Sequence record: NC_007821.1
Reading direction: 5' to 3' (one strand)
Length of the DNA: 6,068 nucleotides
From: Enterobacteria phage WA13
Each line of letters starts with the position of its first letter. Position 1 is the first letter of the stretch. Shown here piece after piece: positions 28-6,068 of the stretch. A model generated the notes under the pieces. It did no database searches. It saw nothing but the letters and a program-made list of their open reading frames with translations, and had not been told where the DNA came from. Both the position numbers and the translations under genes were made by a program.

Positions 28-64
28 GACTCTTGCTTCAACGAATGAAGTAGGAGTCTTTATT
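28..64 (+). terminator. Terminator-like hairpin with U-rich tail just downstream of gene H (across the circular junction); candidate TH
   Basis: Arms 28-40 (gactcttgcttca) and 46-58 (tgaagtaggagtc) pair over 13 positions, two of them G-U wobbles in RNA, with loop acgaa (41-45), followed by TTTATT (59-64). The 3' arm contains the TAGGAG Shine-Dalgarno (51-56) of the ORF starting at 65. Hand-folded, no energy calculation. Confidence 0.45.
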
Positions 65-433
65 ATGAAACCCGCTTACCGCTTGACTCATCCGATTCTC
101 GGCTCTTGGTTGTTTAAGTGCCCCGTTTATATCCGTTATGAGCACCTTCATCACGGTCGTCTTATCAAGGTTCGCGCTGTTCGTGATTTGTCCCCGCGTC
201 AGCAGCTTATTGCTAACCCTAAAAACTGCTTTGACGTTGTTATTGCTGAGATTGACGTTACTTATTGTTCTGTCACTTATTTTGATTATGAGGCTGAGGA
301 ATATACCGAGTGTGATTCAGAAACTATGGATAATATCCTTGCTTATATTAACTCTCCTCATTCCCTTCGCTCTGAGGAGGATTCATCCGTTGATGTTGAC
401 GATATGGCGTGGCTTTATGAAATTGCGGAGTAA
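65..433 (+). CDS. Hypothetical protein (122 aa) in the H-A spacer; not one of the 11 canonical microvirus genes
   Basis: ATG at 65 preceded by TAGGAG (51-56) with 8-nt spacing, TAA at 431-433. By hand count about half of codons end in T versus about a quarter of first positions, the same bias seen in genes D, F, G and H here. The overlapping alternative frame (138..509) gives a Leu-rich product typical of off-frame translation. Acidic C-terminus; I recognise no homologue. Confidence 0.45.
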   Translation: MKPAYRLTHPILGSWLFKCPVYIRYEHLHHGRLIKVRAVRDLSPRQQLIANPKNCFDVVIAEIDVTYCSVTYFDYEAEEYTECDSETMDNILAYINSPHSLRSEEDSSVDVDDMAWLYEIAE

Positions 434-436
434 GTT

Positions 437-526
437 ATGGAAACTGTTGTCGGAAAATTTATTGCTTTGGCTGTTGTTGCTCTTATGCTGTATGGAATTG
501 CCCGCTTAATTCGGAGGTTCCCGTGA
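437..526 (+). CDS. Hypothetical small hydrophobic peptide (29 aa, METVVGKFIALAVVALMLYGIARLIRRFP)
   Basis: ATG at 437 with GGAG (427-430) 6 nt upstream, TGA at 524-526. Single predicted membrane-spanning stretch followed by a basic RLIRR tail. Codons mostly T-ending (act gtt gga.. gct gtt gtt gct ctt). Same frame as ORF 65..433, one codon after its stop. Below the 60-aa cutoff of the supplied ORF track. Confidence 0.3.
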   Translation: METVVGKFIALAVVALMLYGIARLIRRFP

Positions 527-699: not shown

Positions 700-725
700 C
701 AGGCCTTTAAAATACCCTCTATATT
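696..725 (+). promoter_or_regulatory. Sigma70-type promoter upstream of gene A (PA)
   Basis: TTGACA (696-701), 18-nt spacer, TATATT (720-725). Position corresponds to the phiX174 PA promoter just upstream of gene A. Confidence 0.5.
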
Positions 726-756
726 GCCCTCATAGGTTCACTACGAGGGCTTTTTT
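726..756 (+). terminator. GC-rich hairpin plus T6 tract immediately upstream of the gene A start; intrinsic-terminator-like
   Basis: gccctc (726-731) pairs with gagggc (745-750), with an inner tag/cta helix (733-735 / 741-743), followed by TTTTTT (751-756). The 3' arm is the gene A Shine-Dalgarno GAGGG (745-749). Confidence 0.45.
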
Positions 757-3059: not shown

Positions 3060-3073
3060 GGGGCTTCGGCCCC
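3060..3073 (+). terminator. J-F spacer hairpin GGGGCTTCGGCCCC (UUCG tetraloop); likely weak terminator / mRNA-stabilising structure
   Basis: Perfect 5-bp G/C stem closing a C(UUCG)G tetraloop. No strong U tract follows (tataagg), so termination would be partial. The F Shine-Dalgarno AAGGA lies at 3077-3081. Confidence 0.5.
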
Positions 3074-3088
3074 TATAAGGATTCTTAA

Positions 3089-4372
3089 ATGTCAAACGTG
3101 CAAACTTCCGCTGAACGTATTCCTCACGACCTTTCTCATCTGGTTTTTGATGCAGGCAAAATTGGTCGTTTAAAGGTTGTTTCTTGGACTCCTGTTGTTG
3201 CAGGTGATTCTTTTGAGCTTGATATGATTGGCGCTATTCGCCTTTCCCCGCTTCGTCGTGGCCTTGCTGTTGACTCTCGTGTTGACCTGTTCACGTTTTA
3301 TGTCCCTCATCGTCATGTATATGGTGAGCAGTGGATTGATTTTATGAAGCAAGGTGTTGATGCTGCTCCTTTGGCCCCTGTTCAGTGCTCTCGCGGTTGG
3401 GATAGTGCTCAGTATCTTGCTACTATTCCGTCTAGTAACTTAAAGGTTCCTAAGTTTCTTCATCAAGGTTACCTGAACATTTACAATAATTACTTTAAAG
3501 CTCCGTGGATGGATGACCTGACTTATGCCAACCCGTCTAATATGGAGGGTGAAGATGTTCGTTTTGGTGTTCGTGCATGTAACTTGAAAACTATTTGGAC
3601 TGCTCCGCTTCCTCCGGATACTGAAACCTCTCATTCTATGGAGACTGAAACCAACTCCATTGACATTATGGGTTTGCAGGCCGCTTATGCTCAATTACAT
3701 ACTGAGCAGGAGCGTGATTACTTCATGACTCGTTATCGTGATATTGTTAACGAATTTGGAGGTAGTACTTCTTATGATGCGGATAATCGTCCTTTGCTTG
3801 TTATGCATTCTGAGTTCTGGGCCTCAGGCTATGATGTTGACGGCACCGACCAAAGCTCTCTCGGTCAGTTCTCCGGTCGTGTCCAGCAGACGTTTAAGCA
3901 TTCAGTACCGCGATTCTTCTGCCCTGAGCATGGCACTATGTTCACACTCGCATTGGTCCGCTTCCCGCCGACTCATGAAATGGAGATGCATTACTTAGTT
4001 GGTAAAGAAGATTTGACTTATACTGATTTGGCTTGTGACCCTGCTTTGATGGCTAACTTGCCTCCTCGTGAGGTTAATATGTCTCAGTTCTTCCATTCTG
4101 GAAGTGCTAGTGCTAAGTTTAAGATCGCTGAAGGTCAGTGGTATCGCATGCAGCCTGATCGCGTTGCATTGCCGTATAACTATCTTGATGGTTTTCCGTT
4201 CTATAGCGCGATTCCGTCTGATGATATTAAGCAGCGCGTTCTGGTTAATACTGATAACTACGATGAGGTTTTCCAGTCTATGCAGCTTGCGCACTGGAAT
4301 ATGCAGACTAAGTTTAATTGCACCATTTATCGTAATATGCCGACCACTCGCGACTCTATTATGACCTCTTGA
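3089..4372 (+). CDS. F: Major capsid protein F
   Basis: 427-aa ORF. Long stretches match phiX174 F (MSN.QT.AER.PHDLSH, FTFYVPHRHVYGEQWI, GYLNIYNNYFKAPWM, DIMGLQAAYA, LVMHS..WASGYDVDGTDQ.SLGQFSGRVQQT.KHSVPRFF.PEHGTMFTLALVRFPPT, C-terminal PTTRDSIMTS). Confidence 0.95.
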   Translation: MSNVQTSAERIPHDLSHLVFDAGKIGRLKVVSWTPVVAGDSFELDMIGAIRLSPLRRGLAVDSRVDLFTFYVPHRHVYGEQWIDFMKQGVDAAPLAPVQCSRGWDSAQYLATIPSSNLKVPKFLHQGYLNIYNNYFKAPWMDDLTYANPSNMEGEDVRFGVRACNLKTIWTAPLPPDTETSHSMETETNSIDIMGLQAAYAQLHTEQERDYFMTRYRDIVNEFGGSTSYDADNRPLLVMHSEFWASGYDVDGTDQSSLGQFSGRVQQTFKHSVPRFFCPEHGTMFTLALVRFPPTHEMEMHYLVGKEDLTYTDLACDPALMANLPPREVNMSQFFHSGSASAKFKIAEGQWYRMQPDRVALPYNYLDGFPFYSAIPSDDIKQRVLVNTDNYDEVFQSMQLAHWNMQTKFNCTIYRNMPTTRDSIMTS

Positions 4373-4378
4373 TTATGT

Positions 4379-4392
4379 GGGGCTTCGGCCCC
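4379..4392 (+). terminator. F-G spacer hairpin GGGGCTTCGGCCCC (second identical copy); likely weak terminator / mRNA-stabilising structure
   Basis: Same 14-nt sequence as 3060-3073, followed by cTTTaagg and the G Shine-Dalgarno AAGGA (4396-4400). Confidence 0.5.
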
Positions 4393-4955: not shown

Positions 4956-5090
4956 AAGGCTGCCGCACTCCCGGTTAGATGCCTGCCTAGTGTAGGGCAG
5001 ACCGAGCCGTACGGAGATACCCGATAAACTAGGAACGTGGAAGGCGCAAGCCGCCTTCCCTCCTGCTAAGCCCCAAAAGGAGTTACAGCG
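4956..5090 (+). other. G-H intergenic region with stable hairpins; probable complementary (-) strand origin (DnaG primase-dependent, G4-type)
   Basis: 135-nt non-coding spacer, far longer than J-F or F-G. Contains a perfect 8-bp GC-rich hairpin (ggaaggcg / caagc / cgccttcc, 5039-5059), the palindrome ccgtacgg (5007-5014) and a ctgcc/ggcag stem-loop (4984-5000). From memory, the primase-dependent origin of alpha3/St-1/phiK maps between G and H, whereas G4 has it between F and G. H Shine-Dalgarno AAGGAG at 5077-5082. Confidence 0.4.
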
Positions 5091-6068
5091 ATGTTAGGTG
5101 CCGTTGTAGGTGGTATTGCTTCAGCCTTAGCTGGTGGAGCCGCTTCTAAGCTGTTTGGTGGTAAACCTGCCGCTCAAGCCGCTACCGAGTCCTCTGGCCT
5201 TTCTAATGGTCAAGGCGTTATTGGTATGGATCAAGATGCTGGTATTCAGTCAGCTATTCAGGGCTCTAATGTTCCCAATGGTCAGATTCCTGCCCCCACG
5301 CAGACTGGTGGCGTTATGTCTGATGCTAAAAATATGATTAAGAATGCTGGTAAAGATTTGCTTGATGGCGTTATGACCGCTGGAAGTGATCGCATTAAGC
5401 AGGCATTGGTTGATAAGTTGAGTGGTAACGATGCAAAGAAACAAGGACAAGCAACCCGTGATTACTTGGCTGCGGCCTTCCCTGAGCTCAATGCATGGGA
5501 ACGTGCTGGAGCTGGTGCTTCCGGTGCCGGATTGGAGTCTTCCGGCCAGAATCAGCAAAAGGAGTTGATGCGTATGCAGCTGGATACTCAGAAGGATATT
5601 GCTAAGATGCAAATGCATAATAATTTGCAGATTGCTGGTATTCAGTCCGCTACTTCTCGCGAGAATACGAAGGATTCAGTTTATGCTCAGAATGAGATGC
5701 TTAAATTTAATCAACAGGAGTCACAGGCACGCGTTGAGTCTATCCTCGCCAACACTGACCTTACGGCTAAACAGGCTGCCCATGAAATTATGAGAATGGC
5801 CCTTACTCGTGCTCAGGAGACTGGTCAGCATTTAACTAATAGTCAGATTATGGCATTGGAGAAAAAAGTTTATGCAGAAATCGGAAAAATTCATCAAGAT
5901 ACTCAAAACGCTCGTTATGGTAGCTCTCAAGTTACTGCTGCGGCGAAAGATGTTACGAATATGATTACCGATGCCACTTCTGGTGCTGCCGATTGGGTCT
6001 CTCAACAGTGGAATTCTTTCTTTAAAGATGGCAAGTCTAATGGTATTCCCCTCAATACCAGAAAATAA
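5091..6068 (+). CDS. H: Minor spike / DNA pilot protein H
   Basis: 325-aa ORF with AAGGAG 8 nt upstream. Matches phiX174 H (M.GA..GGIASALAGGA.SKLFGG, RDYLAAAFPELNAWERAGA, IAGIQSATSR.NTKD.VYAQNEML, QNARYGSS). The stop codon TAA is the last three bases of the window. Confidence 0.92.
   Translation: MLGAVVGGIASALAGGAASKLFGGKPAAQAATESSGLSNGQGVIGMDQDAGIQSAIQGSNVPNGQIPAPTQTGGVMSDAKNMIKNAGKDLLDGVMTAGSDRIKQALVDKLSGNDAKKQGQATRDYLAAAFPELNAWERAGAGASGAGLESSGQNQQKELMRMQLDTQKDIAKMQMHNNLQIAGIQSATSRENTKDSVYAQNEMLKFNQQESQARVESILANTDLTAKQAAHEIMRMALTRAQETGQHLTNSQIMALEKKVYAEIGKIHQDTQNARYGSSQVTAAAKDVTNMITDATSGAADWVSQQWNSFFKDGKSNGIPLNTRK

Follow-up and report, generated by a model that had tools for sequence, protein, structure and literature searches.

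The sequence at 4-67, immediately downstream of gene H, is probably a single composite module of the pA-T_H-RBS(A) design known from phiX174 and G4, here placed before a three-gene accessory operon (ORF1-3). The window (the whole stretch of DNA that was analysed, 6068 bases) is a complete circular genome of an alpha3-group microvirus (genus Alphatrevirus), opened just past the gene H stop. That stop occupies 6066-6068, and the hairpin element lies 26-64 nt beyond it, across the circular junction. Here begins the long H-A 'intergenic' region, which sets the alpha3 clade apart from phiX174 and G4. At phiX174 gene A, a promoter is already known to overlap a terminator that carries the next gene's Shine-Dalgarno (SD) sequence in its 3' arm, and the ribosome-binding site (RBS) discussed here was marked in a sequence record of the 1980s; the new element is a probable second gate of this type in the alpha3 clade, with a putative -10 inside the stem, before a conserved and largely unannotated cassette. 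The features of the region are as follows.

4-9, + strand: putative -35 hexamer TTGACA, 3 nt past the gene H stop; TTGACA in 19/22 and TTGACT in 3/22 genomes.
23-26, + strand: putative TRTG element (extended -10), TATG in the window; TATG in 17/22, TGTG in 4/22 and TATT in 1/22 genomes.
26-60, + strand: RNA hairpin with a 13-bp core (28-40/46-58), based on minimum free energy (MFE), conservation, covariation and strand asymmetry.
28-33, + strand: putative -10-like hexamer GACTCT, with A-11 and T-7 present, at the base of the hairpin 5' arm; invariant in 22/22 genomes.
51-56, + strand: Shine-Dalgarno TAGGAG of ORF1, in the 3' arm, 8 nt before the ATG at 65; G53-C58 invariant.
59-64, + strand: U-rich tail TTTATT; TTTTTT in the alpha3/St-1 sub-clade, missing in L036/L037 and L040.
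65-433, + strand: ORF1, 122 aa, a conserved clade-specific protein, based on dN/dS and predicted fold.
437-526, + strand: ORF2, a 29-aa hydrophobic peptide with its own SD (GGAG, 426-429).
523-699, + strand: ORF3, 58 aa; its GTG start overlaps the ORF2 stop (GTGA), and its SD is GGAGG (513-517).
696-761, + strand: ortholog, by sequence, of pA-T_H-RBS(A), with TTGACA at 696-701, TATATT at 720-725, a hairpin at 726-750, TTTTTT at 751-756 and the gene A ATG at 759.

The first 800 bases of the window are 99.6% identical to those of coliphage WA45 and 82-94% identical to those of NC28, ID62, ID21, alpha3, St-1, phiK, NC29, NC35 and ID32. Fourteen close relatives were aligned first, and divergent uncultured or metagenomic relatives were then fetched via ORF1, giving an alignment of 22 sequences; a 23rd and more divergent genome, L040 (a Logan SRR20337160 contig), was compared beside the 22 aligned. 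Searches of the literature for H-A transcription, Term-seq and 3' RACE found no transcript 5'-start or 3'-end data for alpha3-type phages, and the ST-1 evolution paper makes no mention of the H-A region.

The stem described in the earlier note, 13 bp with two G-U pairs followed by TTTATT past the H stop, is present in the sequence and can be extended to 15 bp. It runs from G28-C58 to A40-U46, includes the wobble pairs U33.G53 and G35.U51, closes on the loop ACGAA (41-45), and is lengthened at its base by A27-U59 and G26.U60. The folding energy agrees with that description, with an RNA MFE of -20.8 kcal/mol in a 56-nt context compared to -7.2 +/- 2.5 kcal/mol in dinucleotide shuffles (z = -5.5; none of 200 folds equally well). 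The segment 28-58 alone, with five G-C pairs in its stem, reaches -17.4 kcal/mol, while the antisense RNA is much weaker (-12.4 kcal/mol, z -2.3), as expected where G.U pairs matter. The Rfam 15 covariance models gave no match at E <= 1 when run against the whole window. An RNase III processing site was considered and set aside, since RNase III substrates are typically longer than this stem.

All 23 relatives examined (the 22 aligned plus L040) contain the stem, and it persists in L040 even though ORF1 of that genome is just 42% identical over the N-terminal 79 residues. Neither the SD nor the lower stem (GACTC/GAGTC) varies at all among the 14 close relatives, and changes in the upper stem are one-sided, from G.U to A-U or G-C, with some mismatches; no double compensatory changes were found among these 14 alone, and covariation becomes visible only with the divergent metagenomic carriers. 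In L034-L037, the upper stem and loop have been swapped for a longer, unrelated sequence with pairing kept (the window pairs G35.U51 and C36-G50 become U-A and G-C), and in L039 they have also been replaced with pairing kept (C36-G50 becomes G.U). The hairpin loop of L034-L037 is enlarged to about 27-35 nt and contains an inner mini-stem. Across the 22-sequence alignment, 91.8% of cells are paired compared to 41-54% with slid partners. Three pairs (7 cells) are changed on both sides, a level reached by 1/500 shuffles, and the covariation score is 0.114 compared to 0.063 in shuffles, with 0/500 equalling it, although relatedness inflates these shuffle statistics. Six of the 15 pairs are invariant and uninformative on covariation. 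The aligned sequences give positive yet modest covariation support for the stem, and the invariance of its lower part could stem from the SD plus pairing alone. Beyond the stem itself, the conserved UUAU at 22-25 can pair with AUGA at 65-68, including the ORF1 start codon, in 22/22 genomes; its only variable site, A24G, still pairs as G.U. The bases of this extra pairing also belong to the TRTG motif, and the two readings are inseparable.

These substitutions also bear on whether the element acts at the level of DNA, either as a hairpin of the packaged + strand or as a protein site in the replicative form, with a role in replication, packaging or the 'reduction' effect located in the H/A region of phiX174-type phages. 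Packaged strand and transcript share their sense, and as ssDNA the hairpin still beats its shuffles (-9.3 kcal/mol, z -4.3, DNA parameters). Intergenic hairpins of microviruses can in addition be multifunctional, as with phiX174 T_F, which is combined with ori(-)/PriA (Wei, Li and Lehner, bioRxiv 10.64898/2026.07.25.740675). A DNA-level role is nevertheless very improbable: two G.U positions pair only in RNA, the stability of the DNA fold is modest, the changes from G.U to G-C or A-U fit RNA pairing, and the element coincides exactly with an SD and a start codon.

The earlier note had further placed the TAGGAG SD of ORF 65..433 in the 3' arm and predicted a structured, partly occluded RBS in read-through RNA, and both statements hold. 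The SD lies at 51-56 (Kodaira's 1980s alpha3 record M25640 already marks an RBS at the equivalent of window 53-57), and its mean unpaired probability in the read-through context is 0.10. With opening cost defined as the free energy required to force -15..+3 open in a context of -70..+40, the ORF1 RBS costs 18.0 kcal/mol, the maximum in the genome, followed by gene A at 14.4 kcal/mol and the remaining genes at 1.1-7.9 kcal/mol. Up to 100 nt of additional upstream RNA leaves the ORF1 cost unchanged (17.6-18.3 kcal/mol), and contexts of this length contained no competing alternative structure that would relieve the ORF1 RBS. The cost drops to 6-7 kcal/mol once the RNA 5' end is placed at 38 or beyond. 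As positive controls, gene A of phiX174 goes from 12-14 to 4.0 kcal/mol when its RNA begins at the annotated pA start (position 3962, within the hairpin loop), and gene A of G4 goes from 12-13 to about 4 kcal/mol with an internal start; gene A of the window goes from 14.5-17 to 6.7 kcal/mol with a 5' end at 732.

It might be supposed from these values that the hairpin is a translational repressor and nothing else, keeping ORF1 off until a phage or host factor, temperature or an sRNA opens the stem, with no significant role as a terminator or promoter. The SD-occluding stem is indeed the only feature found in 23/23 genomes, those without a U-tract included, and the possible extension at 22-25 would pair the AUG as well in 22/22. 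This explanation is improbable, however, given the lack of any competing structure in the longer contexts at a nearly constant cost, the absence of an Rfam match, and a conserved -35/TRTG block for which it offers no account. Comparable stems are known from RNA phages. In the MS2 coat gene, the stability of an SD-containing stem reportedly sets ribosome access, according to work by de Smit and van Duin. For the Qbeta coat RBS hairpin, the published account describes an SD-sequestering stem that sets the level of translation (PMC2978339). The stem at 26-60 is like these coat hairpins in that the stability of an SD-containing stem would govern ribosome access, and unlike them in that relief is proposed to come from transcription starting inside the stem rather than from refolding or upstream translation coupling.

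Termination at 28-64, as expected by the earlier note, stands only in part. The stem is stable, but a d'Aubenton-Carafa-type index with approximate parameters gives d = -1.3 for the 28-58 hairpin with UUUAUU, a borderline value; on the same index, phiX T_H used as a control scores +27.6 and the 726-750 hairpin of the window +14.4. The index is positive in 7/22 variants (alpha3, St-1, NC3, Lilleven, ID62, NC35 and L038, of type TTTTT(T)) and negative in the other 15/22, this window included as a borderline case. Two lineages, L036/L037 (…GGAGTCTCTCATG) and L040 (…GGAGTCTCTATCATG), have no U-run, retain a stable stem and gain an extra G26-C60 pair. A generic promoter/terminator scan called neither the 28-58 hairpin nor the 726-750 hairpin, and each was scored separately; the reasons for these omissions are technical, in that the stem of the first runs into the U-run and leaves a short tail, and the loop of the second is longer than 8. 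Elsewhere in the window, identical GGGGCTTCGGCCCC tetraloop hairpins occur at 3060-3073 and 4379-4392, after genes J and F, which are the positions of T_J and T_F in phiX174. These J-F and F-G hairpins lack U-tracts and have a negative index in the window although weak phiX174 terminators occupy the same positions, and a negative index therefore does not rule out weak termination. Judged by sequence, 28-64 would act as a terminator partly, and variably by lineage, and it is the SD-occluding stem, rather than the U-tract, that all the genomes conserve.

The simplest alternative to a composite module is a plain intrinsic terminator after gene H, the T_H of the clade, which includes the SD and lacks an internal promoter, with ORF1 expressed only from read-through and at a low or conditional level. 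Such a terminator fits the positive index in the seven variants listed above and the stable hairpin, 26 nt beyond the H stop, that leads into a U-rich tail, and the terminators of phiX174 are leaky (Logel and Jaschke, bioRxiv 10.1101/2020.03.05.979765). On the other hand, a cost of 18 kcal/mol would nearly silence ORF1, yet ORF1 is under purifying selection (see below); most variants have a negative index, and L036/L037 and L040 keep the stem without the U-run; the invariant TTGAC, the fixed 18-nt spacing and the TRTG are left unexplained; and the true pA/T_H ortholog sits at 696-756. A plain terminator is consequently unlikely.

A conserved phiX-pA-like signature (-35, TRTG and A-11/T-7) in the 5' arm and upstream flank is missing from the earlier reading. 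The TTGACA at 4-9 aligns with the pA -35 of phiX174 and G4 relative to the H stop, and the spacer between the -35 and GACTCT is 18 nt in 22/22 relatives. Across the 22 genomes, positions 1-8, 20-34 and 52-61 are near-invariant, while 9-19, 35-51 and 62-64 have diverged freely; the invariant block begins 6-8 nt upstream of the stem, so that pairing alone is no explanation for it. GACTCT matches the -10 consensus at only 2/6 positions. The composite -35/18/TRTG/-10-like pattern has a single occurrence in the window and none in 200 shuffles. On a rough sigma70 matrix with approximate frequencies, the GACTCT configuration scores 9.8 bits, 8th of 30,340 + strand configurations, compared to 11.5 bits for the proven phiX pA and 15.4 bits for the window pA. 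A generic promoter scan of the window did not report the 4-33 element. Two alternative -10 hexamers were rejected, TATGAG with a 13-nt spacer on spacing and AGACTC with a 17-nt spacer on account of the missing T-7.

Mutagenesis of phiX174 provides a comparison for this arrangement. There, pA needs three elements: the -35 TTGACA, TTTCAT as a degenerate -10 and, upstream of the latter, TATG as a TRTG extension, in which 9/10 substitutions are detrimental and A->G is the sole one tolerated (Wei et al., bioRxiv 10.64898/2026.07.25.740675). Among the relatives of the window, the TRTG varies recurrently in just one way, A24G, the same change that phiX174 tolerates. Conservation thus gives good support to a putative weak promoter overlapping the hairpin. 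Its start is predicted about 7 nt past the hexamer, at about A40/A41 in the loop, and the resulting RNA would lack the 5' arm and leave the SD open. It is also possible that the conserved TTGACA serves another role.

The earlier note had called the hairpin at 28-64 the TH terminator, a name that belongs instead to the ortholog of the phiX174/G4 pA-T_H at 696-756, directly before the gene A ATG. The H-A spacer of phiX174 reads TAA-N9-TTGACA-N17-TTTCAT-GCCTCCaaatctTGGAGGC-TTTTTT-ATG(A), and that of G4 reads TTGACT-N18-TAATAT-GCCTCC...GGAGGC-TTTTC-ATG(A). In phiX174, pA and T_H overlap, and no other terminator is as effective as T_H, which halts about 70% of transcription (Logel and Jaschke, bioRxiv 10.1101/2020.03.05.979765); the T_H 3' stem also overlaps the gene A RBS (Wei, Li and Lehner, bioRxiv 10.64898/2026.07.25.740675). 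At 696-761, the promoter TTGACA-18-TATATT matches the consensus at 11/12 positions, and the 726-750 hairpin GCCCTC...GAGGGC has the gene A SD GAGG in its 3' arm, followed by TTTTTT and the ATG. This hairpin shows compensatory changes, with T-A replaced by A-T in ID32 and an A.C mismatch repaired in ID62, ID32 and St-1. By its sequence, 696-756 is the architectural and positional ortholog of the phiX174/G4 pA-T_H, and 4-67 carries that design a second time, closer to gene H.

The H-proximal copy shares several properties with the reference systems. Like the phiX174/G4 pA-T_H-RBS(A), 4-67 has a -35 hexamer a few nt past the H stop and a putative TRTG (as in phiX174) before a degenerate -10-like hexamer; its hairpin 3' arm is the next gene's SD and its U-rich tail runs into the ATG; and opening the RBS is computed to require about 12-18 kcal/mol when the RNA reads through and about 4-7 kcal/mol when it starts internally. 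Unlike in phiX174 and G4, the gene that follows is ORF1 rather than A, the stem has 13-15 bp compared to 6-8, many relatives have an interrupted U-tract or none, and the start site is predicted, not mapped. In addition, the -10-like hexamer lies inside the 5' arm and is weaker (GACTCT) compared to the TTTCAT immediately upstream of the arm in phiX174, and the spacer is 18 nt compared to 17. Within the window, 696-761 is like 4-67 in its order of parts, its leading TAATTxTTGACA and its occluded downstream SD, whereas it differs in that its -10, TATATT, is nearly consensus, TRTG is lacking, the stem is short and GC-rich, and the T6 run is uninterrupted, with d = +14.4. On this comparison, 696-761 looks like the main terminator and gene A promoter, and 4-67 like a weak promoter and variable terminator.

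NC35 (L013) has lost 29 nt at the equivalent of window 703-731, a stretch that takes in the -10 of pA together with the 5' arm of the hairpin next to gene A; as a result, its gene A SD is no longer occluded and the canonical promoter is broken. The deletion junction creates TTGACA-N17-GACTTT, which resembles the -10 GACTCT of the first module. In at least one isolate, then, gene A transcripts can originate upstream, and a working promoter at 4-33 fits NC35 without being proven by it.

An imperfect 21-nt direct repeat starting TAATTxTTGACA (TAATTGTTGACATTCCCTAAA / TAATTCTTGACAGGCCTTTAA), at 6066-18 and 690-710, brackets the ORF1-3 cassette with a score of 11 compared to a genome-wide maximum of 10, and is consistent with duplication of the pA module upon acquisition of the cassette. 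The same repeat, together with the degenerate -10 hexamer, might suggest that the H-proximal element is an evolutionary relic, a decaying pA/T_H duplicate left by the acquisition of ORF1-3 and without function beyond the SD. Of the explanations considered, this one seems the most remote, in that the neighbouring neutral positions (9-19, 35-51 and 62-64) have diverged in the 22 genomes while 1-8, 20-34 and 52-61 have remained essentially invariant, and compensatory changes uphold the stem.

The cassette itself (65-699) contains three tightly packed ORFs, each preceded by a GGAG-type SD. ORF 65..433 is well founded as a gene: ORF1 has a median pairwise dN/dS of 0.18 (compared to 1.2 and 1.8 in the other frames), its variable sites are distributed 44/34/99 over the codon positions, with the third dominating, and AlphaFold gives a confident, mostly beta model (pLDDT 89.9, pTM 0.81). 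ORF3 has a median pairwise dN/dS of 0.07, variable sites of 12/7/30 and a moderate model (pLDDT 75); it is intact in all records and restricted to the alpha3 clade. ORF1 and ORF3 are clearly genuine genes under purifying selection. ORF2 is intact in 15/15 records, as well as in L034, L039 and L040, with an ambiguous coding signature and a length too short for dN/dS. ORF1 is intact in 13/15 records; the old alpha3 record has a single-base deletion in ORF1 that is absent from resequenced alpha3. In St-1 (L009, GQ149088), a one-base deletion at about position 229 frameshifts ORF1, which is either a sequencing error or a natural laboratory-strain knockout; if natural, it would mean that ORF1 is dispensable in culture.

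No family, homolog beyond the clade or significant fold match was found for ORF1-3 in Pfam, PHROGs and NCBIfam, or in the PDB for ORF1. The curated records of alpha3, phiK, St-1, WA45, NC28, ID62, ID21, NC3, NC29, NC35 and ID32 contain no gene annotation at 65-699, and Lilleven is the sole examined record that lists three hypothetical proteins in the H-A region. The overlapping ORF 138..509 (123 aa), annotated as 'similar to hypothetical protein' in MG945254, is probably spurious, as it is open only in WA45-like genomes and MG945254 and has an out-of-frame dN/dS above 1. In L034-L037, ORF1 (1201-1665 in L034-L036 and 689-1153 in L037) carries a 32-residue acidic insertion directly after Met-Lys-Pro and reaches 154 aa. 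In L040, the 42% identity noted above belongs to an ORF1 at 820-1209 (129 aa), while the upstream module, ORF2, ORF3 and gene A are close to those of the window. The L040 sequence suggests that ORF1 is exchanged or fast-evolving, perhaps for host interaction or anti-defence.

Taken as a composite module, 4-67 would operate in two ways depending on where the RNA begins. RNA arriving from gene H would carry both arms, and the -20.8 kcal/mol hairpin, as computed in silico, would bury the ORF1 SD and possibly the AUG too through the 4-bp extension of 22-25 with 65-68. The hairpin and its U-rich tail would stop or 3'-stabilise a fraction of late transcripts, a fraction that may be moderate in alpha3/St-1, weak or borderline in the window and probably nil where there is no U-run. 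A weak sigma70 promoter (-35 at 4-9, TRTG at 23-26 and GACTCT at 28-33), suggested by conservation and by the phiX174 mutagenesis, would fire from about A40/A41, and transcripts started in the loop without the 5' arm would have an open SD (about 6 kcal/mol, like other genes), allowing translation of ORF1-3. The net effect would be that ORF1-3, like gene A, are insulated from heavy late transcription of H and set by their own weak promoter; the strong pA/T_H module at 696-761 would then repeat the gate for gene A. Computation supports the stem and its conservation, the occluded RBS, the coding status of ORF1 and ORF3 and the conserved promoter-like signature; the termination efficiency, promoter activity and start site in this scheme, and the biological role of ORF1-3, are what we infer. 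The proposal of the earlier note that expression of the spacer ORF is kept low or conditional is retained as far as the computed occlusion in read-through RNA is concerned, but the promoter signature points to loop-started transcripts rather than leaky read-through translation as its source. All rival explanations are ranked below the composite module because none accounts together for every conserved feature, namely the -35, the fixed spacing, the TRTG, the compensated stem, the loss of the U-tract with the stem kept, and the purifying selection on ORF1.

With ORF1 and ORF3 clearly under purifying selection, the 'H-A intergenic region' of the alpha3 clade, roughly 700 nt long, is coding, though left blank in the curated records examined. 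Work on genome design, complete annotation and deep mutational scanning uses the phiX174-group microviruses as reference systems. Should the model hold, a 6-kb phage would have added a cassette with its expression programme undisturbed by reusing the promoter-in-terminator-with-RBS gate of gene A. The regulatory principle is known from phiX174, and the conceptual gain is accordingly modest. In a wider and more speculative picture, which we put forward only tentatively, alpha3-type microviruses might have 14 genome elements where textbooks count 11 genes, with the extra three-gene operon (ORF1, for which no fold relatives were found, ORF2 as a 29-aa membrane peptide and ORF3 under very strong constraint) gated by a duplicated pA/T_H-type module whose -10 lies within the terminator 5' arm, a 35-nt stem serving as terminator, translational lock and promoter, and ORF1 acting as a fast-evolving host-interaction or anti-defence factor, in view of its 42% identity in L040 between flanks that are nearly identical. 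Apart from the H-A region, the G-H intergenic region of the window (4956-5090) is also long (135 nt) and GC-rich, with several stem-loops, and is presumably the site of the primase-dependent complementary-strand origin of alpha3, St-1 and phiK.
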